This document shows, in pieces, positions 1 through 20,000 of a stretch of DNA of 20,000 bases. The stretch spans positions 1,291,988 through 1,311,987 of the forward strand of contig MU004199.1 of the NCBI GenBank assembly GCA_010093605.1, given 5' to 3'. The stretch is from Lophium mytilinum. Taxonomy: Eukaryota. The position numbers were made by a program, and so were the translations under genes. The first letter of the stretch is position 1, and each line of letters opens with the position of its first letter. The notes beneath the pieces are model-generated. The model saw only the letters and a list, made by a program, of their open reading frames with translations, searched no databases and had not been told where the DNA came from.

Positions 1-604
1 GATAGATACTAGTTAAATAGTTTTTATATTTATTTTAATAGTTATTTCTCTATTTTAGTAATATAGTTTATTATAGTTATTCTCTAGCTACTAAACTTTT
101 AAATAGCTATATTACTATTACTAACTCTATTATTACCTTAAGTATCTACTTTATAGTAATAAGACTATAGGTTTATAGTACTACCTTATATAGGCTACTT
201 ATAAAGCTTATAGTATTTTAAAAGTTCTATTTTATTAAAATCTATATAGCTCTTAGTATATACTTTTATTATAGCTTAGCTAAGCTAGTACTTATATAGC
301 TAGAATATACTAATATCTAGTAGCTAGTATAGGTGCGTTATATATAGTAGTATTAGAAATAGAAGAATATTATAAATATTATAATATTTAATAATCTATT
401 AAGTACTATAGATAGTATAGCTATCTAAAAAAAGTATTCTATAGGCACTTTTCTATTACTTAGCCGTCTATTAATTAAATAACTAGATTTATTAGAATAC
501 TAGCTAGTTATTTATATAGGCTATTTTATTAGCTTTAAGTATATATTTAGATTAAATAGTTAATTAAGTAAACTAGTATATCTACTTAACCTTCTCTTTA
601 AGTA
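1..604 (-). pseudogene. C-terminal part of RIP-degraded Fot1/pogo-family (DDE_1) transposase; continues beyond window start
   Basis: Minus strand reads YRILFLDSYTIYST..IIKYYNIYNILLFLILLYITHLY*LLDISIF*LYKY. Reversing transitions gives YRILFLDGH..H.T..IIEYC..HNI.P.P.PPHTTHL.QPLDVGVFQPYKH, the Fot1-type second/third catalytic Asp motifs. Confidence 0.85.
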
Positions 605-648
605 CTATATTAACTAAGATTATATAAATACTAGGCTTAGCAGCACTA
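605..648 (+). repeat. Left TIR of pogo-like element
   Basis: CTATATTAACTAAGATTATATAAATACTAGGCTTAGCAGCACTA, preceded by TA; reverse complement present at 4671-4714. Confidence 0.9.
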
Positions 649-990
649 CTAAGTAAGGAAGGCGGTAGTAGTATAATTATATTAAATCGCAGCTAAATCT
701 CTTTATAGCTACTATAAGCACTAATATCCTTACTATTAAAACGTTGTATTTTTCTATTATATATATAATAAAAGTTATAAAGCTTATAATTTTCTATTAA
801 TTACGCTTAAAACTACTAATTTTAGAGTTATTTTAAGTTATAAAGCCTTAGTATTAAATTTACTTTTAGAGGAATATACTACTAGTATATAGATATATAA
901 ATAATAATAAACCCCTTTTCTATTTCTTATAACTTAACTCTACTAATTTTCTTCTAATTTACTTAATTTTTACTATATTTTCTTACCGCT

Positions 991-3015
991 ATACCTCTTA
1001 AAGAGCTTAATTCTAATACTATTACTAAAAGGTCTTATATCTATCTATTTAAGTTAGAAACTCCTTTAAAAGAGCCTAAAAGAAAGTTAATTAAGAACTA
1101 TTCTATTAAATAAAATTAGCCTATTAAAAAGGCTAGAAGGTTCTTTAGTATATAGAAAAAGCTAGAAATTCTTACCTAGTAGTACTACTACTATATAGAA
1201 GTATAGCCTAGTAAGTAGAGCTATATTAAGCTAGGCTTACTTCTATAGTAGCTAGAAGCTAACTACTATTCTTCTATAGGTAATAAGGTAGCTACTTTTT
1301 AAAAGGTTTCTCTTAGTACTATAGGCTTCTAGAAGAAATAAATAGAGGCCCTTTCTAATACTCTATATAATAGCTATATAGTAGCTAGATCTATCTAGCT
1401 TAGTAAATAGAATAATCTAGAATAATAACTATATACTAGATTTATTAAAAAAAGAAAAAGAAAGCTATAAGTTTAAGTATATTAGTTTTAATAGTATTCT
1501 AAGGCTATATTTAAGAAGCTATATCTAGCCCTTATAGTAGCTAATTAGTATATCTAGATCTTCTCTTAGGGGTAGTTTTAAGGGTTTCTATTATACTCTA
1601 GAATCTCTTTTAGAGTAGTAACTAAGAAGGTATTAAAACCCCCCTAATTACTATAAATAGAAGTACTTTCTTAGTTGCTTTTTAACTAGAAAATTACTTA
1701 ACTAATTTATATACTAGCTACCTTCTAGAGCACTATAATAGACTAGCTACTAGCCTAAATTAATACCGCTAATTACTAGATATATAGGTAATAGTTTTAT
1801 CCTTTAAGAATTATAAATATAGATAAAACTTCTATTTCTTTTAAGTAGGTTAATTACTATACTTATAACTTTATAGGCTCTATTAAGGTTACCTCTAAAG
1901 TAATTAAGTTAGGTAATAATAAGTACTAAGCTACCCTAATCCTCTATATATATATAGATAGAGTAGCTAGATATAACTCTATACTTATATTTAAGGGGTT
2001 ATTAAAAGAGGGTAGAACTATACTAAAAAATAAGTAAGATTTATATATAAAAGGGGTGGAAGTATATATTAATAAGACCGCCTATAATAATAAGGCGCTA
2101 TTTTATAATTAGATAAAGAGAGTATATATTCTAGCTAATTAGAATACTAATAAGTAGCTGCTAGAGTCTCTTCTTTTACTTAATACTATAGTATTCTATA
2201 AGACTAAGGCTATTAAGAATCTCTTTATAGAAAATTAGGTATTTATATTAATAATTTCTGGAGGCTATATAGGCTATCTATAGCCCCTTAATATAGCTAT
2301 TAATAAGCCCTTTAAGAAGTAGATTATAAAGAAAGTTAATAATAGAATTAATAAGAAAATTAAGGTAGAAGAGAATACTAAGAATAATATTCTATATAAT
2401 AAGAGAATTCTTACTACTATAGTAGTTATAGAGGCATAGAAGAAGCTTATAGCTAGACCTAAGCTTATAATTAAGGCCTTTAAGAATATAGACCTCTTAC
2501 TACTAGCTAATAGTAGTAAAGACTATAAAATTTATATTAAAACATTTATCTATAGAGAATTTAACCTTTCTAGATAGAGAAATATACTAGAGGTACCTCT
2601 ATATATTAAATAGAAGCTTAATACTAATAATAATAAGCTTAAATTTATAGATAGAGATAATATACTATATAATTAGAGCTAATATAAGAGCGCTATAAAG
2701 ACTACTCTATTAAGACTATATAAAAAGAGAAATCTACCTAGTATAGCTATTAGAAAGTAATAGCTTATTAAGAGGCTTCTAGCCTATAATATAAAAAGAG
2801 TAGAAGAATTAGATTTAGGCGGCTATTTAAATACTCTAAATAACTCTATTAATTTAACTATTACGTCTTATAATAGCTTTCTATCTTCTAGTATTATAGC
2901 TAGTAGCTTAAGTAATAACTCTATTATCTTAGAATCTAGATATAATACTTTTTAGAGGAGTTATAGTAGTTTAGAATTATAGAGTAGATATACTAAGTAA
3001 ATAGAGGACGCCTAA
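991..3015 (+). pseudogene. RIP-degraded pogo-like transposase (HTH/CENP-B-like + DDE_1 + SAP-like C-terminal motif)
   Basis: A single frame carries FS*G*F*GFL..SRISFRVVTKK (1561; CENP-B HTH-like FSxGWFxGF), IINIDKTSISF (1810; NMDET), ATLILYIYIDR..ILIFKG, and IISGGYIGYL*PLNIAINKPFK (2251; IPGGCTGYLQPLDxxINKPFK). The start (ATA from ATG) and end are approximate. Confidence 0.9.
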
Positions 3016-3236
3016 AAGAGGCTAGAGTTATAAGAGGGAGAAGGGCTAATTTTTTATTCTTTTTACTATAAATATAGTACTAATCTTAATCTATATACTA
3101 TAGATTTCCTACCTAGAGTTATAGCTAATTAATTATAATATATTCTATCTTATTCTATCTAAAAGGGCGTTCTAATCTATCTAATATTAGCTATTCTATA
3201 TCCTCTAGTAGTAGCTACTAAGAGTATATTATAAGG

Positions 3237-3984
3237 AAATAGAAAGTCTATAGAAGAGCCGCGCAGCCTTACTATAAATCTACTTAAGAGTAATAACTTA
3301 ATTAAATATTTATTAACTCTTATATACTTTTTATAGGTTAATAGCGTATATATAGGTAAATAGCGCGCTTAATTATAGCTAGACTATATTAGTAGATTTA
3401 AGAGATTTATAGTTTAAAGGTATATATATATTAAATATTTTATAAGTAAATTTATCTAGTTCTAGTATAGCTTAATAGTTAGTATAGTACTTCCGCAGAT
3501 TAAATTCTTAATATAATAAGCTTAAGGAGCTTTTATTGCAAGAATTTAATCTATAGAAGTATAGGGAGTAGAAGGTTAGTAGTACTCTTTTTATAGTTTA
3601 ATTTCTAGCTAGACCGCTTTCTTTTTACTTAAATATTTATTAATTCTTACACGCTTTTTATAGGTTAATAGCGTATATGCGGGCTAATAGCACGCTTAAT
3701 TATAGCTAGATTATATTAGTAGATTTAAGAGATTCGCGTACTAAAGAAAGTATAATAGCTAGAGGTGTAGACTATTTTTATACTCTAGGCCTATATATCT
3801 TATTTAAACTATAAATCTCTTAAATCTACTAATATAATCTAGCTATAATTAAGCGCGCTATTAGCCCGCATACACGCCGTTAACCTATTAAAAGCGCATA
3901 ACTATTCTATAATAATTAACTAAGTTATTACTCTTAAGTAGATTTATAGTAAGGCTATATAGCCCTTCTATAGACTTTCTATTT
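3237..3984. repeat. Fold-back / multi-palindrome cassette inside the pogo 3' region
   Basis: About 180-bp arms at 3237-3416 and 3803-3984 are reverse complements. A third, direct copy of the inner ~105 bp lies at ~3630-3734, and there is a central hairpin at 3488-3561. Confidence 0.85.
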
Positions 3985-4670
3985 TATGCGGTCTATTATA
4001 AAAAAATTTACAACTTATTTAAATTTCTATTAATTTTATTTAAACTAGAAGTAAATTAATTAAGTTTATCTAATCTATTTACTATTTAAAGTAGAACTCT
4101 ATATAACTATTATAGAGGTAGAAATCTATACCTAGAAACTTAGTAAAATATATACTACTATTATACTAAACTTTATCTTCTACTTAATACTAAGGTAACT
4201 ATCTAGATACTTATAGCCTCTACCTAGGCGTATTATATATTTAATAACACGCCTACTAGCTTATAGGCGTATATTAATAGGCACGCAATTCTCTTTCTTT
4301 ACCTAACCTTAGTATTATCTCTTAGTATTTTAGAAAGAGATTCTAGAACCTCTAGATATATTATATATCTAATCTATAGGTTAATAATAGATAAGAATAT
4401 ACTTCTTATTTATTTTAAAGTATAGAGAATTAATAAAGTTATATATAGTATCTATAAAATAAGAATTAGTAAAGTAATATATAAGAAAGGGGGAAAATTA
4501 TATATAAATTACCTTAAAGTCCCCTATAGATACGCTTATTTTTATAGAAGTAGTTATAATAATAAGGTATATATAATTACTAGCTATTATAGGCTATTTT
4601 AATATACTATAGCACTAAGCTAATATTAAAATTAAAGATAGAAGCTAATAGGCGCTTAATTAGATATAGC

Positions 4671-4714
4671 TAGCGCTACTAAGTCTAGTATTTATATAAT
4701 CTTAGTTAATATAG
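4671..4714 (-). repeat. Right TIR of pogo-like element
   Basis: Reverse complement of 605-648 with 3 transitions; followed by TA. Confidence 0.9.
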
Positions 4715-4716
4715 TA

Positions 4717-5391
4717 TAATAAAGAGTAGAAAAATATTACTATTAGCTAAAATATATTTACTAACTATATAGAATTTATAGCTAGTTATTATTCTAGACT
4801 TAATATAACTATATATAACTTCTATAATAACTTTCTATTACTTTTCTATATCTAGCTAAATACCTATCTTATTATAATTATATAGATCTATATCTTAAAT
4901 ACTATAGTCTATTATCTAGTACTCTAGTATTATAAACTAAGTACTAAAAGCCTTTTAATTCTTAGCTACCTCTTAAGTAAGCTTCTTAGAGTTATTAGTA
5001 TATATAATATAGTCTAGGTACTACTAGAGAAATTAATATATCTAATACTTACTATAAATACACGCCTAGTATTAAATAAGGGGTTAGTAATATACTAAGA
5101 AAAAATATAGTTATATTTATTCTAGATTATTTAATAGGTAATATATATCTAAATAGTAAGTAATTAATTAAGCTAGGTAATAAGGCTATTCTCTTTAGAT
5201 AGTATTAGTAGCTTATTAGTAGCTAGCCTATCTATCTATAATACTGCGCTATATATATATAATTTAACGCGTCTAATTAGAGTATTATATTCTATATAGA
5301 TAGTAAGAATTAATAGATAAATACCGCCTAAGATAGCACGCAATATATCCTGCACATATTTTTTAATATTCTAGGCACTTCTCTCTATTAT
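4717..5391 (-). pseudogene. N-terminal part of the RIP-degraded Fot1/pogo-family transposase
   Basis: Minus strand has an HTH-like N-terminus (..LRAILGGIY..; TNKLL.LSKENSLIT*L), SKY*IY*FL**YLDY (GKHWIYRFLxRHP), DLYNYNKIGI (YNxDETG, first catalytic D) and SKYILANSNIFLLFII (ECISADG..PPFII). It joins in frame to 604-1; there is an apparent frameshift near 5060-5100. Confidence 0.85.
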
Positions 5392-5430
5392 TATAGTTAA
5401 TATTAGGGGTATTATAATAGGGGGGGTGGC

Positions 5431-5476
5431 ACAGCTAGTAAGCTAGAAAGCTAGTAAGCTAGCGGCCCCCCTACTG
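5431..5476 (-). repeat. Probable 5' terminal repeat of the Fot1-like element with two internal direct repeats
   Basis: AGCTAGTAAGCTAG at 5433-5446 and 5449-5462, just upstream of the transposase start. Fot1-type TIRs contain such paired direct repeats. The partner TIR is outside the window and no TA is seen at the presumed end. Confidence 0.5.
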
Positions 5477-6014
5477 CGCAGGGGGGCTAGAAAGGCCCGA
5501 GTAGAGCCCGCTATTAGCCCTATTTATCTAATACTAAGTACTAGACCGGAATTTATTCTAATTATAGTTATTATAAAATATATATATATTACTAAAAGCT
5601 TTCTTATTTCTTCTTATAAGGATGTTAGATACTTATAATATTACTATAGATAGTAGTTTAACTAAACTAGAAGATACCTATAAAGGTTATATAGACTTAT
5701 AACTTAAGCTTCTAACTTCTTATTCTAGTAGTTTTACTATAATATTATAAATAATCTTAGACGCAGCTAATAGAGAATATAATAGTTATTATATTCTTAG
5801 ACCGGTAATTATAAAGTTAGAATATAAAACCCTAATACTAATAATAGACGTATATCTAAATACTAGAGTTAGAAGAGAATTTAAACTAGCACTCTATATT
5901 ATTATTAGTAGAAGACATTAGACTATAATCTTACTTTATTCCCTACTAGGTATATTACGGTAGTTTCTTCTTACTATTAGGCACGCACAATAATAAAGGC
6001 AGAAAGGAAGTAGG

Positions 6015-6282
6015 TGTAAGGATTATAATAGTATAAGTATTATATCCTTATACATAATAGGCTTAAAAGCCTTTAAACGGGACGAAACTATAAGCATTTA
6101 AACGTAATATAATAAACGTTAGATAACGTTATAAGAATATTAGAGAAACGTTTTATAATGCATTAAATGCTATATATATATAACTCTATTACTATTAATA
6201 TAGAATAGAACTTAAGTAATATAATTTCTATCTATCTATCTATCTATCTATCTATTTTTATATTAACTCTATACCTTTAATA
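6015..6282 (+). repeat. 5' LTR of copia copy 1
   Basis: Aligns with 13580-13843; differences are mostly C>T/G>A changes plus TATC unit number. Confidence 0.95.
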
Positions 6283-6292
6283 GGTTATAAGC
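6283..6292 (+). promoter_or_regulatory. Primer binding site (internal tRNAi-Met fragment type)
   Basis: GGTTATAAGC directly after the LTR (copy 2: GGCTGTGAGC). The consensus GGTTATGAGC is complementary to GCUCAUAACC of the initiator tRNA anticodon arm, as in Drosophila copia and Ty5. Confidence 0.8.
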
Positions 6293-7020
6293 ATAGATTG
6301 TACTACGCAATCTACAGCTATATAAAGCACTAACAGGCAGGTTCCATCTTAAAATTAACTAGATATTAATTAAAATTACCCAAATCAATAAAATATTAAC
6401 TAGAATTATTTAAATCAACTAAATATTAGACAAAAACAACGCCGTTTACTATCTTAATTACTATCTCCAGCGTATAAACCTACTATACCACCCTATAAGT
6501 AGTTTTAAGCACAAAACAAAGCCAAAAACAAAGCCAAAATTAAAGGAGATAAAGTTATTAACTATAAACCCGCTATATAACAGCTAGAACGCAAGCTAGA
6601 ATTATAAATCTATTACAAATAAAATTAGACTAAAGAAATATTACCTATTTATTATATCTATTAATATAAAGCTTCTATAAGCTTATATTACATTATAAAT
6701 TACGTAATTAACCTTCTAACGTCTATTATCTATTACGTATTAAATCTAGATACTCCAGATTAGATTATAACCTTTTATCCTATTATTTTATCTAATATAA
6801 GATAGAGAAATTGATTAAAATTTAAAATATTTCTCTTTCTATCTATCTATCTATTTATTAAATATATAGATACATAGAATTTATCTATCTATCCATTTAC
6901 TAAATACATAGATAGATAGAAATCTATCTATTTAATAAATCTATAGATATATAGAAATCCATCTATTTATCTATCTATCTATTTGCCTAACGGGCTATCT
7001 ATCTATCTATTTAATCTAAA

Positions 7021-10000
7021 ATGGATAAAATTAGTATTACTAAGCTAGTTAGTTAATCTAACTATAAAGTTTAGGCTCTAAGAGTACAATCTCTCTTAGT
7101 AGAAAAAAGTTGTAGTAATGCTATTAGCAGTACTACGCCTATTCCTATTAATAAGGAAAATAATGTAAAAGTATTAGCCACTATTAGGCTTACTATAGAG
7201 GACGGTCCTCTATTATAATTATAGTATTCTACTACTGTAATAGAAGCTTAGAAGCTACTAAAAAAGCTATATAGCCCTAAGGGCTTTAGTTCTAAATTCC
7301 TTATTTATAAGGAACTATTTAATACTATTTTATCTAAGTTTTTAACTATAGAAGACTACTTAAATAAGATAAAATAGTTAATAGATTAATTAAAAGCAAA
7401 AAAGCTTAAATTACTAAATTAAGTTGTTGTAGCTTAGGTTCTAAATAACCTAATGGACCCCTATAATAGCTTTATAACTATAGTTACATAATCCTATAGG
7501 GAAAATTTATCTAATATTAAACTAGATAATTTATTCTCTAATTTAATAGATAAAGCAAGATAATAGAAGTCTAAAGAGTATAAAACGGCTCTATTTAATA
7601 GAACTAAAAGGTTCTTACTAAAAAAGAATAGAGTAGAAAAAATAAGATATTATAAGAAGTGTAAAATAGCTATGCACCTTATAAAGGATTATTTCTATCT
7701 ATTTCTAGAAAGAGCTCTAAAATGGTTTAGAATAAAGGAGTACTTTAAACTACTAAAAGATAATAAGAATAAGGAAGAATCCTTACTTACAGAAGAATCT
7801 AACCCTAATAACTAGGCAGATTTCAATATAGATCTAGATGCAGCTAAAGTAAAGGTATTTCTAGCATCCTATTATACCCCTAATAATAAAGCTAATTATA
7901 TATTAGACTCCAGGAGCACAAGCCATATAATAGTAGATAGAAATCTATTTACTAGTTATAAGGAGCAAGCTATTATATTTAATTAGGGAGAAAATAAAAC
8001 TATAACTATAGAAGGTGTAGGAAATGTATAATTAAAACTAAATAGGAATATATTTCTACTAGAAAAGTGCCTTTTTATACCTAACTTTAGATATAATCTA
8101 ATATCTATAAGTAAACTAGATTCTATAGGAATAAACGTTATGTTTAAGAATAAAATAGCTATTATATATAAAAAGAATAATATACTAGTAATAGCATTAC
8201 TTAAAAACTCTTTATACTATATAAATATAGAGAATACAACGCTTTTTATAAAATAAATAGATAAAAAGATAAATTATATATATAAATAGATAGATAAAAG
8301 CGATTTAATAAATATATATATAGATAGAAATAATCTATCTATTTAGTACTAAAAAATAGGCTATATAAGCTCTAGAAAGCTTAGTATACTATTAGGTATA
8401 AATATAAAAGAACCTATATAATATAAAACCTATATAAAAGCTAAAATAACAAAAAATAAGAGAAATAAGGAAATAATACTAAAAACGGTAATTTCTTTAT
8501 AAAAAGTCTCTTTAGATTTAGCAGGGCCTATAAATCTACCTAGTTTAGGGGGTAATAAATACGTTATCTTCTTTATAGATGCAGCTTTAAGATATATAGA
8601 ATATAAACTATTAAAGTCTAAAGATAAAGCTTATAACGCCTTTTTAGAATATAAAGCTAAGGCTAAAAATATAAATATAGGAGATAAAAGAAAAATATAA
8701 ATCTTTAAAACTAATAATAGGGGAGAATATATAAATAAGAAGTTTAAAATAACTCTTTTAAAAACAGGTATAACCTATTAATTCTTAAGCCCCTATACGC
8801 CGGAATAAAACGGCTTAATAGAATAAATTAACTTAACTATATTAAATATAGTAAGGGCTCTATTATATATAGCTAATTTACCTTTTAATCTATAGAGAGA
8901 AGCTGTAAATGCGGCTGTATATATATATAATAGAATACCGCACTCTAGCTTAAAAGATAAAACGCTATTTAAGCTATATTATAAAAGAAAAGCTAAAATA
9001 GATAATATAAAAATCTTTAGCTCTATAGCTTATTATAAGGTTAAAATACAAATAACTAAATTAGAACTAAGAGCTAAAAAGGCTATAGTATTAGGCTATA
9101 GTTTAAATATATATAGACTATTAGATTTAGAAAGTAAAAAGATCTTTTAGGCAAGAGATGTATCTATAATAGAAGGCTTCCTTAATAAAAGAAATAAAAA
9201 TAATGTTAATAAAAAGAAAAATCCTTTAGAATATGTTATTAATATAGAGCTACTAAAAGATAATACTATAAGTAGTAATACTAAAAGATAATACTATAAG
9301 TAGTAATACTATAAGTAATACTATAAGTAATAATACTATAAGTAGTAATAATTTAATAATAGATAAAAGCTCTAAAGATAAATTAGCTATAAAACTATCT
9401 AGAAATCTATCTATTTAAAGATATATATAAAATCTAAATTTAATAAATAGATATATAGATAAAAATTAAGTATAATTATTAAATATATATATAGATAGAA
9501 ACTAAACTTAATTATCTATAAATATATATATAGATAATCTATCTAAAGATAAATTAGCCTTTATTATTAGTAATAACAGCAAGCTAAATATATATAAATA
9601 AGCTATAGAATCTCCTTATAATAATAAGTAGAAAGAAGCTATATAAATAGAAATAGACTAGCTTAATAAGTAAAATACCTAGAAGTTAGTAGACTTACTA
9701 GTAAATAGAAATATATTAAAAGAATACTGGGTTTATAAAATTAAAACTAATATAGATAATAATATATCTAAATATAAGATAAGATAGGTAGTAAAAGGTT
9801 TTAGCTAAGTCTATAGTATAGATTATAAAGAAACCTTTACTAATACCTGCCGCCTAGAAGTATATAGGCTATTACCTATAATAGCTACCTATTATAACTA
9901 GAAAATAATATAATAGAACTTTAAAAATGCATTTATATATATAGAATTAGATAAAGAACTTTATATAGAATAACTATATAGTTTTAATAAAAATAATAGT

Positions 10001-10065
10001 AATAAAGTCTATAAACTAAATAAAGCCTTATATAGTTTAAAATAATTACCTAGATAGTAGTATAT
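7021..10065 (+). pseudogene. copia gag-protease-integrase-RT(N-terminal) polyprotein relic
   Basis: MDKISITKLVS*SNYKV*ALRVQSLL; degraded CX2CX4HX4C knuckle ~7651-7692; YILDSRSTSHI (protease) ~7897; I*Y*KIGYIS (WHxxxGH); LDLAGP; PYTPE*NGL; NT*KLVDL; WVYKIK; KLNKALYSLK*LPR. Confidence 0.95.
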
Positions 10066-12311
10066 TATTATTATTATTAAATTCTATTATACTAGTATAG
10101 CTTCTATTAGAGTCTATATAGCTATTCTATCTAGGCTAATTTATAAGAGAAAACTATTTACTACTAGATAGTATTTAAGTAAAAATCTTATTCTCTATTA
10201 TATCTAGTATTAGGCGCCCTTCTTCTTTATATTTTACTATAGGGGATATATAGTAGGTCTATAAAAACTACTATAAAATAAGCTATTAAAATATATCTTT
10301 CTATATCTATCTAGAAAGGTTTATTATTATCCTTCTAAATTTAGGCTAAGTAGAATCTAGATAGAAGGCTAGTATAAAATTAGCGTAAGGGCCTATATAT
10401 AAGTAGTACGCGCGCGGGGCCTTTATCTAAGGTAATAATAGTAAAGTAAGTAGTAGCTATATAGGCTATTTAAATAGAAAGGCTATATAGTATATAGATA
10501 GTATATAGTAGAGGTATATAGTAAGTATATAGTTTATAGATAGTCTATTATTTTATAGATAGGCTATAAGAGTAGAAGGGCTATAAGTAGCTATAAAGTA
10601 TAGAGTTTATAGCTATAGTAGTAGATATAAGCCCCTATAGTATAGCTAATAGCTATAGAAGGGCTAAAAGTATAGAGTATATAGTTTATAGTCTATAAGT
10701 AGAAAGTATATAGCTACTTATAGTAAGTCTAAGCCTTTATAGTATAACTAACTAATAGTAGAAAAAAGCCGCGTATATATACTATTATAAAGTAGGTAGA
10801 CTATTTAAAAATAGAAGAGCTATAAGAAATAAAAAGTATATACTATAGAGTATATAGTAGAAATCTAAAGCTAACTATCTATTAGTTCTAGTATACTATA
10901 GAGAGTATATAGCTATATATAGTAAGTATAAGCCTCTATAGTATAGCTAAGAGCTATAGCTTAGCTAAGAGCTATACTGCGGCTATAGTTAGTAATAGTA
11001 GGGTTATTAGTAATAGTAAGACTATTAGTAATAGTAAGGCTATTAGTAATAGTAAGGCTATTAGTAATAGTAAGGCTATTAGTTATAGTAAGGCTATTAG
11101 TTATAGTAAGGCTATATATAATAGTAGGGCTATAGTATTAAGTAGAAGGGCTAGATCTACTCCCTTTCTATTTCTCTTACTATTAAGAGGTAGAGTAGTA
11201 GGTCTATTTCTAAAATATATTTATATTATAGAGCTATAAGAGTTATATATAAAATAGAGTTAGGCGTAGCTCTTCTACTAGAACTCTCTACTATAGGTAT
11301 AGCTTACTAAATATATACCTCTATTCTATATATATCTAATTTACTTTATAAGCCTATCTTATAGCTAGCCTCTACCTCTTAATAGACTAATATATATATC
11401 TATTCTTTTAGGCTATATAAATAGTATTATTAGTAAGGGTTTAATTCTTTCTCCGCTATAGATTTACTAAGAGTTAGAGCCTAGTAAAGGGGTAAGGTTC
11501 TTAGAGCTATCTATTATTACTATTATATACTACGCCCTACAGCTCTTTTAGTTCTAGTAGCTATTTTGCGTTACCTATATTATTCTTATAATAATAGGCT
11601 AACTATATCTTATAGATAGAGGTATTAGCCTAATAGTATACCTAGTAGCTAGCTATTATTCTAATAGTAACCTAATACTATACGGCTACTATGCCTTCTA
11701 TCTACTAACTAAACTTATTATCCTCCCTTAGCTACTACCTGCATCTTTATCTATTCTAGCACTATGTTAATACATTCTTCCCCTACTTCTAAGTCTATTT
11801 CTAGCTCTCTAAGTTCTAGATTAATATCGCCGCAGCTAAGTTAATATTAATATAATAAGGATTAACATTATCTAATATAGTTAATAGTGCTAGAATTCTC
11901 CCTATCCTTGCTATAAGTATAATCTTAGAATAGAATAAGTATAGTAGTATCCTATTCTATTACTAGGCCTTCTACTTCTACTAGTAAATGCAGGCGCCGG
12001 CTTATAGTCTAGGATAGTAAGCTTCTAGATAGTAATAGATTAGGTGGTTCTTAAGAAAGTTCTACTATTTAAATTTCTATCTATAGATATTAAGTTTTAG
12101 TAGTAGTAGGCCGCTAAGACCCGTAAAAACTCTACTATTCTAGCGGCGTTAAGGACAACGTCTTTAAAGACAACCTCTAGCTACAACGTAACGCCGCTGC
12201 ACTAGTAATAAACGTAATTCTTACTCTTGTATAAGCCTTGCGGTTTAAATAAGACGGAAAGGAACCCCCGTACAACAATATAGATTAAATTATAATTTTA
12301 GTGTTTCTTTA
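10066..12311 (-). mobile_element. Non-LTR-type insertion (TAA-repeat tail, ~12-bp TSD) of unknown class inside the copia RT
   Basis: ATAGTAGTATAT is duplicated at 10054-10065 and 12312-12323; the uninterrupted site is present once in copy 3 (~19620-19640). (TTA)n at ~10063-10079 is a minus-strand (TAA)n tail. Confidence 0.8.
10989..11132. repeat. 18-bp tandem repeat, 8 units (TTAGTAATAGTAAGGCTA consensus)
   Basis: Units start at 10989, 11007, 11025, 11043, 11061, 11079, 11097 and 11115; unit length is a multiple of 3. Confidence 0.95.
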
Positions 12312-13386
12312 ATAGTAGTATATATATCTAGCTACCTATCTAGAAAAGTATAGTTTTAAAAGTACTATTATAGAGTAAGCAGTATTTAAAAATACGCAAC
12401 TAAATATAATAATAGTCTGCTATATAGATAATTTATTAGTATTTAGGCTAAATATAAAAGATATAGAAAATCTATAATTAAAACTAAGTAAAGACTTAGA
12501 ATTAACAAACTTAGACCCTATATCCTATTTTCTAGGCATAGAAATAATATATAATAGAAAAGAAAGAACCTTATTACTAAGCTAGAAAAAGTATATAAAA
12601 AGTCTATTAAAAAGATTTAATAAAAAGAAACTAAATCCCGTTTCTATACTAGGAGAAATAGGTATAAAACTAGAGAAAAACAATAAACAGGCATTAAAAG
12701 AAGATATAAAACTATACTAGTAATAAGTTAGAAGTCTTATTTATCTATCTATAAAAATAAGACTAGATATAGCCTATAGCATAAATCTATGCGCTTATTT
12801 TATGTCTAATTCTAGTCCTATTTACTTTAAAGCCTTAGAAAGGATCTAGAAATACTTATTATATAAGCCTACGCACGGAATTAGCGTTAAATTTTCTCCT
12901 AGTAATCCAGCACCCTATTTATTAGGATATTTAAATGCAGATCACGGGGGTAATATAATAGGAAGAAAATTAATAACTGGCTACTACTTCTCCTATGGAA
13001 AAACCCCTATTAGCTGGAATAGTAAATTATAGAAATCTATAGTACTATCTAGTTGCAAAGCTAAATATATAGCTTTAAAAGAAACTATAAAAGAATATAT
13101 ATACTTAATAAGTATATTAAAACAACTTAATAATAAAAATACAGAAGACTTCTATCTATTTACAGATAGTTAATTAGCTATAGAATTAGCTAATAATCCT
13201 AAACACTACTTAAAAACTAAATATATAGATATACAATATCATTTTATAAGAGAAAATATTTAAAATAGATTAATAAAGCTAGCCTACCTTAATACTAAGG
13301 AGTAAATAGCTAATATATTCACTAAACCATTAGTGGGAAGTAGTTTTACTAAAATAGTAGACTATATAAGATTAGATACTAAATAG
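12312..13386 (+). pseudogene. copia RT (C-terminal) + RNase H relic, copy 1
   Basis: IVCYIDNLL (YVDD), YFLGIEI, RPDI-like RLDIAYS, NADHGG..RKLITGY (DADW..RKSTTG), LSSCKAKYIAL, KYIDIQYHFIRE, IANIFTKPL; stop at 13384-13386. Confidence 0.95.
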
Positions 13387-13476
13387 ATACATAGATACAT
13401 AGATATAACTCTATTACGCAAATAGATAAATATATAGATTCTATCTATCTATCTATCTATCTGTGTAAAGAAGAAA

Positions 13477-13524
<48 letters not shown>

Positions 13525-13570
13525 CTCTATCTATTTAAAAAAGAATATATAAAATAAGCATATAACGCTT

Positions 13571-13579: not shown

Positions 13580-13843
13580 TATAAGGATTACAATAGTATA
13601 AGCATTATATCCTTACGCATAATAGGCTCAAAAGCCTTTAAACGGGACGAAACCGTAAGCGTTTAAACGTAATACAACAAACGTTAGATAACGTTATAAG
13701 AACGTTAGAGAAACGTTTTACAATGCATTAAATGCTGTATATATACAACTCCGTTGCTGTTAATGTAGAATAGAACTCAAGCAATATAATTCCTATCTAT
13801 CTATCTATCCATCTATTCTTACATCGACTCTATACCTTTGACA
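13580..13843 (+). repeat. 3' LTR of copia copy 1 (less RIP-mutated than the 5' LTR)
   Basis: Ends ...CCTTTGACA followed by the TSD GTAGG. Confidence 0.95.
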
Positions 13844-14078
13844 GTAGGGATAGGTAGATAACTATAACGTGTTAGAACTTTATCCTCTAATACTTCTACT
13901 AATATAAATAGTTTATAACTATATATTTAAGACTTAGTAATAACGCTTCTTATAATTACTAGTAGTATCTATATTTAGCACGTAACGGACGCTTATTTAT
14001 AACACTTGCATTATATATAAAAATGTTAGCGGATCTTTAGATTTACTAAGTAGACGGGACGTTATTATATAGGATTAT

Positions 14079-14106
14079 TATTATAACGTATTGGACGACT
14101 AGAAGA

Positions 14107-14138
<32 letters not shown>

Positions 14139-14347
14139 GAATTGTATCACTTAAGTTCTATTCTCTATTAATAGCAGCGGAGTATATATATAGCATTTAA
14201 TGTATTATAAATATCTCTCTAATATTCTTATAACATTATTTAACATTTATTATATCACGTGTAAACGCTTATAGTTTTGTCCCGCTTAAAGGCTTTTAAG
14301 CCTATTATGCGTAAGGATATAACGCTTATGCTGTTGTAAACCTTATA
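14079..14347 (-). mobile_element. Solo LTR, variant subfamily of the same copia family
   Basis: 14101-14347 aligns to the reverse complement of the copy 1 LTR. The terminal ~25 bp differ and no TSD was found, so the left boundary is uncertain. Confidence 0.85.
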
Positions 14348-14677
14348 TAAGTTACTTAGTAAGAAACGCTTTCCTTTGAAAAAGGATGCCAATCTGCCAA
14401 TGCCTCCCTTGGGAGCCAAGCCAATCTCTCTCTTGTGCTAGGCAAAGACACTACAACGTTTCCCCTAGAAGTATTCACAATCTAGGCGGTAGGGGTTTTA
14501 GGCCATTTTTCCCTTATTAAGTTTGGCGCGCTATATTAAAGCGTGGTAGCACCTGTACCTAAAAGAGAACCGGCTACCTTAGCTAGTCTTAGAGGAGGTT
14601 TCCCTAATAAGGGCTAGTTTCCTTTAATAAGAGAATAACGCACTATATAGAGCCGCTGCATAGACCCTTATAGGAGC

Positions 14678-14721
14678 TAAATTAGCGTAATAAATTAGTG
14701 TAATAAATTAGCGTAATAAAT
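14678..14721. repeat. 13-bp tandem repeat x3 (TAAATTAGCGTAA)
   Basis: Units at 14678, 14691 and 14704. Confidence 0.9.
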
Positions 14722-14836
14722 AGATCTATCTATCTATCTATCTATAGTTTAATAATAGTATAAGCGTTATCTCTTTACTTATTATAGACTTAAGTATTAT
14801 TATATAGGGATAAAAATAAAAGGAATCTTAGATAAT

Positions 14837-14879
14837 TATTAAAGATACAAGGTTAGTAGAAGAATAGATAAATAGATAA

Positions 14880-14974
<95 letters not shown>

Positions 14975-15134
14975 CATAAATATATAGATAGATAAATATA
15001 AATTATAGTACTTAAGTTTTATTCTATACTAATAGTAATATAGTTATATATATATACTATTTAACGTATTTTAAAACGCTTCTCTAACATTCTTCTAGTA
15101 TTATCTAGCATTCCTTATATTACTTTTAAACGCT
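14837..15134 (-). mobile_element. Diverged, truncated LTR of the same family with an expanded (GATA)n tract
   Basis: Co-linear with the reverse LTR (…GAATAGATA…, ACTTAAGTTTTATTCTAT, TTTAAACGCT); pure GATA run ~14881-14974. Confidence 0.7.
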
Positions 15135-15531
15135 AGTAAAGATATAGAATTAGTATATTAATAGATAGATAGCTAGATATATATATAGATATATAGATAG
15201 ATAGATGCATAGATTATAGATATATATATAGAAAATAGCTTACTATTCTATCTTTAGTAGACTAGATTTTATATTTAAAAAATAATATTAGAGTAGTATA
15301 TATTAAAGTAGGTAAAATATATCCTATCTATAGAGGGTAGAAACGCAACTCAGCTAGTTTAATAGCTTAACTTTGCGGATAATTTTCTTGCATTCGGATT
15401 GGGGAGACATATTAATACATGTTCTAAGAATATAATAGAACATTATTGTGTTATACTATACGCATCCCTATAAATAATGCAGAATAGTAAAGGCTTAAGT
15501 AAAGAAAAAGAATTTGCTAGTAATTTCATAT

Positions 15532-17315
15532 CTAGATAATTGTAATAGTCTCTAGCGTCCAGTTAGAGTAATGTCCGGGAAATATAAATACCTCTCCCAC
15601 TCGCCTAAAGGTGGACACAGCCTTATCCACAGCTTTAACAACGATGCAGTCTGCGGAGCTGTAATGCTCTTTATCCCATACAACTGTAAAAATATAGACC
15701 TCCTCGCTAATAAACACTTCTATCTAATCCTTACATATCACATCTGGCTGAAATAGACATGCTCTTACCCCAACATTACGCCCCACATATAAGCCAAGGC
15801 CAACGCCCTCCTTTATAATAGTGCCTTAAGCAAATAGTCTACAAAGTGTTAGGGAGCTAGTGCCTAGTCCATATGGATTCTAGCCAGCCTATTCTGTTCA
15901 AGGTATAGAGTTGATGGGAGAATAGATGGATAGATAGATAGGAATTGTATTACTTGAGTTCTATTCTATATTAATAGCAACAGAGTATATATACAGCATT
16001 TAATGCATTATAAAACGTTTCTTATAACGTTATCTAACGTTCGTTGTATCACGTTCAAACGCTCACGGTTTCGTCCCGTTTGAAGGCTTTTAAGCCTATT
16101 ATGCGTAAGGATATAACGCTTATGCTATTATAATCCTTATATATTCTACCTTGATATCAATAATTTCCGAGAAGTATTCACCCACATCAACTGTGTGTAA
16201 GAGAACTACAGAGGTTACGGACGCCCAGCTCCACGTTGGGGCATACTGTAAGTTGTTCCGGTGGGAAGTTCCTTCGTATAATGTCCCCAAACCATCTGAT
16301 GTTTGCCAGAGCATATTCGTCAGGAGTTCTGGTTTCTACAAGCCAAACAAGTAGTCCTTAGACCTATACGGCTTCATCGCACTGGCTGCTCCTGCTATTG
16401 CGGGAAGGCAGTTAGTATTATACATTATCTTCCTCTCTATAAACTGAGAAACGATGCTTTCCCAGTTAAATCTTGGCCCGTTCTTCGTTGTAAGATCAAC
16501 GCTTTGGTATGGCTGTTGGTTCTTAAACAGTTGGCCTTTTAAGTTAAATTTCTCTAGAGTACATTTACAGCGCCAGTTTTCCTTGCACTCAAATACCATC
16601 TCAACTGCAGTGTAGTGGAGCGTCCTTAGAGAAAGTAGTCGCTCTTGAAATGTCCAAGCTCTTGTATCTAGCAGGGTTAACGTTAATTGTGGACTGTGCC
16701 TAACGTCCCTTTTAACTTCGTTGTAAATGGCAGTCCTAGTTCCGAATACATTTGTTTAGGATTCTATCTGCGCATATACCTGACTGGTTTTGCCTTCCAA
16801 AATTCCAGGGCAGGGTATGCTAATGGATTTGTTTGCCGATTGACCTCTCGCAGAAAAGATGCCTTCTCTCGCATCTTTGGCGCTGTCTGCTGAAATTGTG
16901 ACGTGAGCTTAAGAATAAACGTCTGCCATTCTTGATGCTTCCATTATCCAGGCACTCCTATTATTCTGGATAATACACAAAGCGTTAATCTAAAGGTAGT
17001 TAACCCTAAGAGCACAAGTAAGAATGATGGCTTCTTGAAACAACCTGGGCAGCGTTGCAAATAAAATTTGCGTTTCTTTCTTTCGTAATGTCGCCTCCGT
17101 GGTAGTAATCGGATGGTACTTATCCCAACAGTAGCTCAGTGCTACATATTTTGCGTGTTCCCCGTTCGAGTTGTAGAGTCTAGGCTTGGTTTCGGTTAAC
17201 CCGACATTGATTACCCTCGTGGGTAGTTGCGAAATGCTAATTTAACAATCGTGGTATAATTCTACGCATTTTTAGATCTACAAGCAAACAAGATCTATAC
17301 ACTTAGGCGAAGAGG
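15532..17315 (-). pseudogene. HET-domain (heterokaryon incompatibility, PF06985-type) protein pseudogene, split by a solo LTR and 5'-truncated
   Basis: One frame reads TSSPKC..L*I*KC...HDC..LPTRVINVG..YVALSYCW..TLPRLFQEAI..YL*INALCIIQN..W..EASRMADVYS*AHVTISA..TRAWTFQERLLS.RTLHY..EMVFEC..LPAIAG..YLFGL*..APTWSWASV | LTR | NPYG..FRRVG..ITII*. It includes track ORFs 16336-16599, 16120-16314 and 15532-15717. Confidence 0.95.
15895..16141 (-). mobile_element. Solo LTR inserted in the HET gene
   Basis: Reverse copy of the family LTR with a perfect 5-bp TSD TATTC (15890-15894, 16142-16146). Confidence 0.95.
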
Positions 17316-18077
17316 TATTAACTTTATACCTTAATAGGCTGTGAGCTTAGATTGTACTACGCAATCTACAGCTATACAAAGCACTAACGGGCAGGTTCTA
17401 TCTCATCTAAATTAACTAAATATTGTTCTAAATTAACCAAGTATTGGATAAAAACGCCGCTACTTACTATTACTAGTATATAAACCTACTACACTACTAT
17501 ATAAGTAGTTTCAAGCACAAAATAAAGCCGAAATTAAGAAAGAGGATGAAATTATTAAATATAAACCCGTTGTACAATAGCTGGAACATGATCTAGAATT
17601 ATAAATCTATCACAAATTAAATTAAACTAAAGAAATTTATATTTACTATTATAAAGCTTCTATAAGCCTATATTATATTATAAACTATATACTTAACCTT
17701 CTAATATCTATTATCTACTATATATTAAATCTAGATACTCTAAATTAGATTATAACCTTATATCCTATCATCTTATCCAACACAATATAGAGAAATCGAT
17801 TGAAAATCAAAATATTTCTCTTTCTATCTATCTATCTATCTATTTATTAAAGATATAGATATATAGAGTTTATCTATCTATCTATGCGCTAAATGTATAG
17901 ATAAATAGAAAGAGAAATATTTAATAATCTAAAGATATATAGAAATCTATCTATTTATCTATCTCTCTATCTATTTACCTAATAGGCTATCTATCTATCT
18001 ATCTATCTATCTACTTAATTTAAAATGGATATGATTAGTATTACTAAGCTAGTTAGTAAATCTAACTATAAAGTTTA
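17316..18077 (+). mobile_element. copia copy 2 fragment: last ~21 bp of 5' LTR, PBS, 5' UTR and first 17 codons of gag
   Basis: Aligns to 6261-7073; ATG at 18025 (MDMISITKLVSKSNYKV); interrupted at 18078 by copy 3. Confidence 0.93.
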
Positions 18078-18334
18078 TGTCAAAGGTATAGAGTCGATGG
18101 GAGAATAGATGGATAGATAGATAGAAATTGTATTACTTAAGTTCTATTCTATATTAACAGCAACAGAGTATACATACAGCATTTAATGCATTATAAAATG
18201 TTTCTCTAATGTTCTTGTAACGTTATCCAATGTTTGTTGTATTACGTTTAAACGCTTACGGTTTCGTCCCGTTTAAAGGCTTTTAAGCCTATTATGCGTA
18301 AGGATATAACGCTTATGCTATTATAATCCTTACA
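18078..18334 (-). repeat. 3' LTR of copia copy 3
   Basis: TGTCAAAGGTATAGAGTCGATG...AATCCTTACA, the reverse complement of the family LTR. Confidence 0.95.
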
Positions 18335-18380
18335 TACTCCTTTAAGCGTTATATGCTTATTTTATATATTCTTTTTAAAT

Positions 18381-18398
18381 AGATAGAGAGATAGATAA

Positions 18399-18472
<74 letters not shown>

Positions 18473-18510
18473 TTTCTTCTTTGCACAGATAGATAGATAG
18501 ATAGATAGAA
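18381..18510. repeat. (GATA)n microsatellite in the copia 3' UTR (equivalent TATC tract at 13441-13535 in copy 1)
   Basis: Long pure GATA run, longer than in copy 1. Confidence 0.95.
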
Positions 18511-18562
18511 TCTATATATCTATCTATTTACATAATAGAGTTATATCTATATATCTATATAT

Positions 18563-20000
18563 CTATTTAGTATCTAATCTCATATAGTCTACTATTTTAG
18601 TAAAACTACTTCCCACTAATAGTTTAGTGAATATATCAGCTATTTGCTCCTTAGTATTAAGGTAGGCTAGCTTTATTAATCCATTTTAAACATTTTCTCT
18701 TATAAAATAATATTGTATATCTATATATTTAGTTTTTAAGTAGTGTTTAGGATTATTAGCTAACTCTAAAGCTAATTAACTATCTGTAAATAGATAGAAG
18801 TCTTCTATATTTTTAATATTAAGTTGTTTTAATATACTTATTAAGTATATATATTCCTTTATAGTTTCTTTTAAAGCTATATATTTTGCTTCGCAACTAG
18901 ATAGTGCTATAGATTTCTGTAGTTTACTATTCTAGCTAATAGGGGTTTTTCCATAGGAGAAGTAGTAGCTAGTTATTAATTTTCTTCCTATTATATCACC
19001 CCTATAATCTGCATTGGAATATCCTAATAAATAGGGTGCTGGATTACTAGGAGAAAATTTAACGCTAATTCTATACGTAGGCTTATATAATAAGTATTTC
19101 TAGATCCTTTCTAAGGCTTTAAAGTAAATAGGACTAGGATTAGACATAAAACAAGCGCATAGATTTACGCTATAGGCTATATCTAGTCTTGTCTTTATAG
19201 ATAGATAAATAAGACTTCTAACTTATTGCTAGTATAGTTTTATATCTTCTTTTAATGCCTATTTATCGTTTTTCTCTAGTTTTATACCTATTTCTTCTAG
19301 TATAGAAACGGGATTTAGTTTCTCTTTATTAAATCTTTTTAATAGACTTTTTATATATTTTTTCTAGCTTAGTAATAAGGTTCTTTTTTTTCTATTACGT
19401 ATTATTTCCATGCCTAGAAAATAGGATATAGGGCCTAAGTTTATTAATTCTAAGTCTTTACTTAGTTTTAATTGTAGATTTTCTATATCTTTTATATTTA
19501 GCCTAAATACTAATAAATTATCTACGTAGCAGACTATTATAATATTTAGTTGCGTATTTTTAAATACTGCTTGCTCTATAATAGTACTTTTAAAACTATA
19601 CTTTTCTAGATAGGTAGCTAGATATATATACTACTGTCTAGGTAATTATTTTAAACTATATAACGCTTTATTTAGTTTATAGACTTTATTACTATTGTTT
19701 TTATTAAAACTATATAGTTGTTCTACGTAAAGTTCTTTATCTAATTCTGCATGCGTAAATGCATTTTTAAAGTCCTATTATATTATTTTCTAGTTATAAT
19801 AGGTAGCTATTATAAGCAATAGCCTATATACTTCTAGGCGGCAGGTATTAGCAAAGGTTTCTTTATAATCTACACTGTAGACTTAGCTAAAACCTTTTAC
19901 TACCCATCTTATCTTATATTTAGATATATTATTATCTATATTAGTTTTAATTTTATAAACCCAGTATTCTTTTAATATATTTCTATTTACTAGTAAGTCT
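18563..20000 (-). pseudogene. copia RT/RNase H relic, copy 3
   Basis: Minus strand reads WVYKIK, DFKNAFTHAEL, KALYSLK, VCYVDNLL, YFLGMEI, ADIFTKL; multiple RIP-type stops. Confidence 0.95.

Follow-up and report, generated by a model that had tools for sequence, protein, structure and literature searches.

The 20,000-nt stretch of Lophium mytilinum contig MU004199.1 analyzed here (the window) carries a 2246-bp insert at positions 10066–12311, sense on the minus strand, within the reverse transcriptase (RT) region of a Ty1/copia element. We conclude that this insert is most probably a bipartite chimeric retrocopy from one retrotransposition event of a long interspersed nuclear element (LINE), i.e., a template-switch chimera, in which a ~1.1 kb 5′ unit that does not appear to code for protein is joined directly to the 3′ part of a LINE. 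The comparison material consists of eight further copies of the unit, found at seven metagenome loci (L002–L008), and of the MINE elements of Magnaporthe grisea, which carry a non-coding RNA called WEIRD. Under the mechanism that we propose, a LINE endonuclease would have nicked the copia RT region, and reverse transcription, starting from the (UAA)n terminus of an RNA from a resident LINE, would have copied the last ~1.15 kb of that RNA. The RT would then have jumped to the 3′ end of a separate ~1.1 kb non-coding unit RNA and copied it to its 5′ end, and the joined complementary DNA would have integrated, leaving a 12–13 bp target-site duplication (TSD). Repeat-induced point mutation (RIP) would later have mutated both halves, with the high-copy LINE half reaching saturation. 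We infer the template jump itself: a 5′ RNA that is constant, an entry point into the LINE that varies, two parts that share their orientation and are joined directly, and one TSD pair together argue for a single event of target-primed reverse transcription with a jump. The original prediction, of a retrocopied RNA mobilized with a LINE partner, thus came close; its picture of a single cargo element gives way to a bipartite one with a LINE 3′ end. The features of the insert and its host are as follows.

7000–10065, plus strand: left part of the host Ty1/copia (Retrotran_gag_2, Pol_BBD, rve_3, SH3_retrovirus and RVT_2 profile positions 2–128; Pfam, stops read as X)
10054–10065, no strand: TSD, left copy, ATAGTAGTATAT; same 12-mer at 12312–12323
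10066–10080, minus strand: 3′ microsatellite tail, ~5 TAA units on the sense strand, missing from the empty site
10066–10329, minus strand: terminal 264 nt, homologous to the LINE 3′ end (3′ untranslated region, UTR) of L003 and L004 by RIP-aware local alignment
10066–11211, minus strand: LINE-derived 3′ part, 1146 nt, RIP-saturated and repeat-rich (RIP index, contig variants; last 264 nt shown as LINE)
10989–11137, minus strand: 18-bp tandem repeat, 8.3 copies (TRF and repeat search)
11212–12311, minus strand: 5′ unit, full-length copy of an apparently non-coding RNA of ~1.1 kb, WEIRD-like, with conserved ends (whole-length alignment with eight metagenome copies)
12312–12323, no strand: TSD, right copy (direct reading)
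12314–13537, plus strand: right part of the host copia (RVT_2 profile positions 134–239 and downstream sequence; Pfam; 95% complementary to 18412–19635)
19626–19645, minus strand: empty site in the inverted copia copy (arm overlap and direct reading)

Insertion site and LINE-derived 3′ part

The boundaries of the insert can be read directly, with ATAGTAGTATAT at 10054–10065 repeated at 12312–12323 as the TSD. Between these copies, the plus strand of the insert opens with TATTATTATTATTAAA, corresponding to a tail of TAA repeats on the minus strand (TRF: period 3, 5.7 copies, 10063–10079). The base next to the right copy is A at 12311 and G at the corresponding place in the empty site, so that the TSD could be 13 bp long if RIP altered 12311. 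The empty site itself is supplied by a second, inverted copia copy (18412–20000) that runs through the position without the insert (...TTACCTAGACAGTAGTATATATATCTAGC..., in a longer reading ...CCTAGACAGTAGTATATATATCTAGC...) and in which the TSD stretch is present once, as ACAGTAGTATAT. Complementarity is 95% for each pair of copia arms (9691–10065/19626–20000 and 12314–13537/18412–19635), the arms share 10 bp in the uninterrupted copy, and a 20-mer across the site occurs twice in the window compared to 0.20 times expected from shuffles. Contigs of the sequencing runs covering the window join 10055 to 12314 with 10 shared letters; these contigs may represent the inverted copia copy itself. At the protein level, the insert splits the RVT_2 domain of its host, with profile positions 2–128 ending at 10065 (E 5e-23) and positions 134–239 starting at 12316 (E 3e-11) in a Pfam search that read stops as X.

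The insert has asymmetric ends, with a microsatellite at one end only. Its termini are not joined by any inverted pair (no terminal inverted repeat among the 25 longest of 425 pairs), and no direct repeat resembling a long terminal repeat was found at the insert by blastn within the window. A DNA transposon with terminal inverted repeats and a long TSD (e.g., Mutator-like) was rejected based on the same inverted pairs and the asymmetric ends. The insert also lacks a second copy in the window, where blastn against the remaining sequence gave five weak low-complexity matches, and no Pfam family was found in its six frames at E≤1. On all these points the original prediction is borne out: a 2246-bp insert with a TSD of ~12 bp, a TAA tail and an empty site in the copia RT, without terminal inverted or long terminal repeats, non-autonomous, and placed by LINE-type target-primed reverse transcription.

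As a separate observation on the host, the two inverted copia copies (9691–13537 and 18168–20000) are 93–95% alike although both are heavily RIP-mutated, and only one of them holds the insert. This suggests either a duplication of the copia after the bulk of the RIP or convergent RIP in its two copies.

The window is AT-rich (18–33% GC outside one island) and bears strong RIP signatures. The 3′ half of the insert is RIP-saturated: the RIP index, (CA+TG)/(AC+GT), is 0.00 at 10066–10810 and 0.03 at 10811–11190, compared to 0.24 at 11191–12313 (the 5′ half) and 0.28–0.41 in the flanking copia. No frame of the insert has a stop density as low as that of the copia frame. The original prediction had taken the missing domains as telling, on the grounds that every other, equally mutated element nearby could be read. 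Neither premise holds, given the index of 0.00–0.03 in the 3′ half of the insert against that of the copia, and given that the RIP-mutated positions 1–7000 of the window yield no Pfam domain in six frames (such scans covered the window outside 13600–18400).

Contigs of runs X1 and X2 (one sample, probably the source of the window) were aligned to the window at a likeness of at least 80%; X1 contributed 600 aligned contigs, and run X3 contributed none at this threshold. Differences of the X1 contigs from the window are mostly A>G (113 places) and T>C (115 places), and the other copies are therefore less RIP-mutated. Variant letters are carried by 8–24 contigs per site within 10111–10377 (3′ half; 12–24 at sites such as 10186 and 10338), as against 2–4 contigs per site within 11346–12160 (5′ half; sites 11346, 12039 and 12160), and the 3′ half therefore belongs to a family far more abundant than that of the 5′ half. 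One contig of this sample matches 12009–11209 at ~80%, stops at 11209 and continues for 268 letters, and another links 11336 to 10292 via 153 other letters. These junctions, read from contig tables only, suggest further chimeras joined at other points.

The relationship of the 3′ half to LINEs was assessed by RIP-aware alignment, whose scoring tolerates C>T and G>A changes in the window. The whole 1146 nt scored 146 against the LINE part of L003 and 129 against that of L004, compared to ~43 ± 6 for shuffles and 44–57 for reversed sequence. The signal comes from the terminal 264 nt. These run colinearly with the final ~267 nt of the L003 and L004 LINE parts up to the tail and score 129 (L004) and 124 (L003), whereas the best of 34 control pieces, taken from elsewhere in the window and aligned on both strands, reach 61 and 48. 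The original prediction had named alignment to an ordinary LINE 3′ end as an outcome that would speak against it, and in this terminal stretch that outcome is what we observe; for the element as a whole the objection holds by half. A stem-loop that it had considered possible near this end is not supported in the RIP-mutated sequence, in which the last 134 nt give z = +1.03, with 176 of 200 shuffles folding at least as well.

Upstream of the terminal 264 nt, the 3′ half is built of internal repeats of 18 bp, 79 bp and ~200–335 bp, and looks like a VNTR-like (variable number of tandem repeats) region between the second LINE open reading frame (ORF2) and the conserved LINE 3′ terminus. These upstream 880 nt are presumably LINE 3′ UTR. 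As L003 and L004 also carry tandem repeats directly behind ORF2, the junction in the window is probably located close to where ORF2 ends or within the 3′ UTR. No RT is visible in the insert because the LINE piece is probably mostly 3′ UTR. Tandem repeats of 16–18 bp occur in the LINE 3′ UTRs of several sources, each with different repeat units (window 10989–11137; L003 sense 1230–1350; L004 sense 1800–2100).

The 5′ unit and its LINE partners

To characterize the remaining half of the insert, metagenome contigs were scanned with a degenerate 27-mer from a CpG-rich hairpin near the 5′ end of the unit, which returned eight loci. L001 (70% GC) has no similarity to the insert; the other seven, L002–L008 (35–42% GC, from two samples), carry eight copies of the unit in sense orientation, two of them (L002a and L002b) in the same locus. 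The similarity of these copies is limited to the first ~1100 nt of the insert, and it delimits the 5′ 1100 nt (11212–12311) as a non-coding unit with fixed ends. In all nine copies (window and eight relatives) the 5′ start falls on the same point to within a few nucleotides, and the relatives show a ...AAGGAACACC... motif there. The 3′ end is the same in all but L002b (...ATATATTCTGG or ...ATATATCTTGG), which stops 2 nt short of it at the end of its own locus, and in the window this end appears at 11212 in the RIP-mutated form ...ATATATTTTAG. The flanks upstream and downstream of the unit differ in every copy.

Units of the relatives are 84–89% identical in DNA. The window unit shows 66.4% identity to their consensus, with 184 of the 328 mismatches being C>T or G>A, and 85.2% when these two changes are forgiven. 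In the nine copies the longest open reading frame (ORF) of the unit spans 83 amino acids in the sense direction and 110 on either strand, even in copies of 51–52% GC. Searches for known RNAs gave no Rfam family at E≤1 on the insert stretch and a single chance match (mir-7615, E 0.9) on 41 kb of the relatives, and ARAGORN found no tRNA gene on the insert stretch. Accordingly, the unit does not appear to code for protein; under the proposed mechanism, it would be a transcript of its own.

Three other identities were considered and rejected. A short interspersed nuclear element (SINE) would have a tRNA, 5S or 7SL head, which neither ARAGORN nor Rfam detects. An ordinary 5′-truncated LINE is incompatible with a 5′ 1100 nt that is not LINE ORF and with a 5′ end that is fixed across nine copies. 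Telomerase RNA was set aside as well, with a 9-mer permutation of a telomere template found in one of eight unit copies and not conserved.

Folding of the unit points to a conserved base-paired 5′ domain, for which the evidence is suggestive. Over the first 200 nt, RNAalifold pairs 95.4% of cells (37–49% when the partners are slid) and finds 9 pairs changed on both sides (0–4 when slid), a value reached by 1 of 500 shuffles; the fold is derived from the same nine mutually related sequences, and RIP favors GC-to-AU double changes. The whole-unit fold (292 pairs, 65 with double changes) is uncontrolled and is not used as evidence, and the first 214 nt of the insert, in their RIP-mutated form, fold no better than shuffles (z +0.34). 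A second recurring feature is the core CGTTAA, of which each of the eight less mutated units holds 3–8 copies on the sense strand, mostly within GCGRCGTTAAYC, as compared to a mean of ~0.3 and a maximum of 3 in shuffles and to 0–2 copies on the antisense strand. These copies cluster at sense positions ~420–575 of the unit (e.g., L004 3332–3460) and vary in number between copies. The very 3′ end of the sequence joined to L002a closely resembles the GCGRCGTTAAYC motif, and on this sequence evidence the motif cluster may recruit the LINE RT.

Downstream of the unit, the relatives carry LINE sequence in the same orientation, with six different entry points mapped in L003–L008. Together these span ORF1, the endonuclease, the RT, the ORF2 C-terminus and the 3′ UTR:

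L007: Exo_endo_phos_2 at residues 467–573 after the junction (E 3e-12); three CCHC knuckles upstream, by eye
L006: RVT_1 from amino acid 156 after the junction (E 1e-23)
L008: RVT_1 from amino acid 20 after the junction (E 4e-19)
L005: entry at residue 172 of the L008 ORF2 piece (alignment)
L004: entry 773 nt 3′ of the L005 entry, in the ORF2 C-terminal region (alignment)
L003: entry 581 nt 3′ of the L004 entry, in tandem repeats of the 3′ UTR (alignment)

Pfam found no family in the parts that follow the unit in L002a, L003, L004 and L005. The LINE proteins are 47% (L006 and L008) and 37% (L005 and L008) identical, a divergence well beyond that of the units, and one RNA therefore pairs with several LINE lineages.

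Two of the relatives are complete chimeras with individual TSDs, as the original prediction had expected of a retroposed family. L003 consists of the unit, ~690 nt of LINE and an (ATT)7 tail between TSDs of 16–19 bp, and L004 of the unit, ~1320 nt of LINE and a degenerate A/T-rich tail between TSDs of 14 bp. For five other copies, the 3′ end of the chimera lies beyond the available sequence. The features by which such chimeras are recognized are thus present: 5′ RNA ends that are constant, a 5′-truncated LINE 3′ part with truncation sites that differ between copies, and parts in the same orientation, directly joined and bracketed by one TSD pair (window, L003 and L004). The junction of L004, read against the intact LINE sequence of L005 as AGC[T/C] joined to ACCAAT, is compatible with the GCC*A/U chimerization motif of MINE, as a single case with an ambiguous junction.

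Some copies stand head to tail. The 933 nt after the L002a unit end in (CT)n and are followed at once by a second unit, such that within L002 2885–6027 the second unit begins 2033 nt after the first, immediately after the (CT)n with which the first chimera ends. In the sample of the window, an X1 contig joins 12311 to 10068 via 13 letters, so that one copy follows another in the same direction there. Such arrangements could stem from template jumps in series, from a preference for certain targets or from tandem duplication. The L004 locus also holds a 226-aa open frame (positions 2–682, plus strand; no Pfam match; cut at the start of the locus) 2.2 kb upstream of its chimera; this element is near ordinary-looking sequence and not only in repeat blocks.

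Alternative explanations

An unlikely alternative is that the insert is an internally deleted LINE, with the unit representing that LINE's own 5′ UTR or promoter and the insert a deletion derivative that intact copies mobilized in trans. A long 5′ UTR is nothing unusual in a LINE, the L007 unit precedes an almost complete LINE with a CCHC region and an endonuclease, and among the eight copies with a visible downstream side there is none whose unit lacks LINE-like or unclassified sequence behind it. Against this, the left breakpoint falls on the same nucleotide (±0–4 nt) in eight of eight visible junctions while the right one ranges from ORF1 to the 3′ UTR, and random deletions would vary on both sides. 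Moreover, 5′ UTRs normally evolve faster than ORFs, but here a unit conserved at 84–89% in DNA is attached to ORF2 sequence conserved at 37–47% in protein, and the ~105 codons before the CCHC knuckles of L007 (by eye) look like a truncated ORF1. We regard as very improbable that the two halves arrived in separate events, either by insertion of a truncated LINE exactly at the 3′ end of an older unit or by insertion of the unit at the 5′ border of a LINE fragment already in place. Such a nest would suit RIP-rich regions, which are mosaics of nested insertions, and would suit the different RIP levels of the two halves. However, one TSD pair flanks the 2246 bp as a whole, neither half is present in the empty site, the internal junction shows no second duplication, and L003 and L004 show the same build with one outer TSD; a second event would also need to have hit the same nucleotide in every copy.

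Least credible of all is the set of origins favored by the original prediction, namely a dedicated non-autonomous and possibly protein-coding retroposon (HAL1-like), a retrocopied mRNA or a 3′ transduction. The lack of a visible RT, the TSD and tail, and a family with a defined 5′ end are all in keeping with these origins. The coding version founders on sense ORFs of at most 83 amino acids in nine unit copies, little-RIPed ones included, and on the lack of any Pfam family or recognizable ORF1; a 3′ transduction would place the non-LINE part 3′ of the LINE part, and here it sits on the 5′ side. Finally, since the LINE junction differs from copy to copy, the 2.25 kb do not propagate as one unit.

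Several observations weigh against a template-switch chimera. No free unit gene is among the copies from the 27-mer scan, although no search was aimed at solo units, and all relatives come from two metagenome samples. Nor was a transcript of the unit seen, the sequencing runs listed for the window including none of RNA. Of the 1146 nt in the 3′ half, LINE likeness is shown for the terminal 264; the upstream part has no domain and could include a third component, and the first 520 nt of this half score 42–44 against L003, L004 and L005, which is within the shuffle range. The greater abundance of the 3′ family is read from contig depth, which does not equal copy number. For the 933 nt behind the L002a unit, neither a Pfam match nor similarity to the LINE parts of the other copies was found. 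Lastly, the relatives include no full-length LINE with a 5′ UTR of its own (no search was aimed at one), and the unit may, with low probability, be a LINE 5′ region.

Elsewhere in the window, a remnant of a HET-domain (heterokaryon incompatibility) gene lies at 16336–17241 on the minus strand, in a GC-richer island at 15500–17500. Its Pfam HET match at 16993–17241 (E 2.8e-4) reaches 21.7 bits, just below the cut-off of 22.5 bits, and a 139-aa open frame at 16336–16755 has no Pfam match. Such a gene is in keeping with a filamentous ascomycete. A palindromic repeat group occupies 3237–3984, and LTR-like repeats are repeatedly bordered by long (TAGA)n/(ATCT)n microsatellites (13477–13530, 14861–14980 and 18380–18480, among others).

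Related systems and significance

The closest architectural counterpart of the template-switch chimera described here is MINE. In the sections of Gogvadze et al. 2007 (PMC2104539) drawn on here, MINE is described as a full-length 1.1 kb non-coding WEIRD RNA followed by a 5′-truncated MGL LINE of 230–5461 nt, with TSDs of 10–20 bp, and five criteria of LINE template-switch chimeras are listed; the same sections give WEIRD an abundance like that of housekeeping mRNA, and report, as of 2007, no WEIRD homolog outside M. grisea and no solo WEIRD gene (PMC2104539). Shared with the present element are a full-length ~1.1 kb non-coding RNA at the 5′ side, a variably truncated LINE at the 3′ side, the same orientation and direct joining of the parts, TSDs within 10–20 bp, the lack of a solo copy of the 5′ RNA among those found, and insertion into other sequences. 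The unit is likened to WEIRD by architecture and not by sequence. The two systems differ in that the host genome here is strongly RIP-mutated, that the tails are TAA, ATT or CT repeats, and that the unit, present in more than one source, is joined to three or more diverged LINE lineages, whereas MINE, as far as that account goes, involves one LINE and Mg-SINE (PMC2104539). Within our limited literature search, the MINE/WEIRD terms were met in Magnaporthe literature only.

Other systems share parts of this design. Mammalian chimeras of U6 snRNA and L1 and other chimeric retrogenes made by template switching, as treated in the same sections, likewise combine a full-length small RNA at the 5′ side with a truncated LINE, one TSD pair and an RT template jump (PMC2104539); the 5′ partner here is ~10 times longer and belongs to no Rfam family. 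Fungal SINEs (Mg-SINE/MGL and SINE2-1_BG/Tad1-24_BG) are non-autonomous and LINE-mobilized and carry a LINE 3′ end at their 3′ side, according to the portions of PMC3747384 used here. Unlike them, the insert is 2.2 kb long, lacks a tRNA, 5S or 7SL head, and belongs to a set of copies in which the LINE part varies in length, in contrast to the fixed LINE-like tail of a SINE. The tail also recalls the I factor of Drosophila (I clade), for which the same portions describe 3′ UAA repeats as needed for precise initiation of reverse transcription (PMC3747384): in the window a (TAA)n 3′ tail directly abuts the TSD, although the relatives end in ATT or CT repeats or in a degenerate A/T-rich tail.

An element of this kind is thus already known from MINE and the U6–L1 chimeras; what is new is its presence in a RIP-rich genome, a 5′ partner conserved between sources, and the involvement of several LINE lineages. 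For genome annotation, this means that repeat annotators will take such inserts for unclassified non-autonomous retroposons, and that the absence of a visible RT is weak evidence in RIP-saturated DNA. The unit copies in turn supply sequences for testing what the unit RNA is.

Tentatively, the unit might be more than a bystander cellular RNA, namely a 5′ hitch-hiking retroelement with its own promoter and transcript end that is copied when LINE RTs of several lineages jump onto its 3′ end. We raise this idea, which we hold to be possible but less likely than not, because the unit is conserved across fungal species (85% without RIP-type changes) and has a paired 5′ domain and the GCGRCGTTAAYC cluster. 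If it is true, every chimera would be a new source gene, which would explain why no solo gene is seen here or in Magnaporthe. MINE and WEIRD have so far been a curiosity of one species. Finding the same architecture in a RIP-mutated genome and in the fungi of two metagenome samples suggests that, among filamentous fungi, LINE template switching recurrently involves a dedicated partner in the form of a long non-coding RNA.

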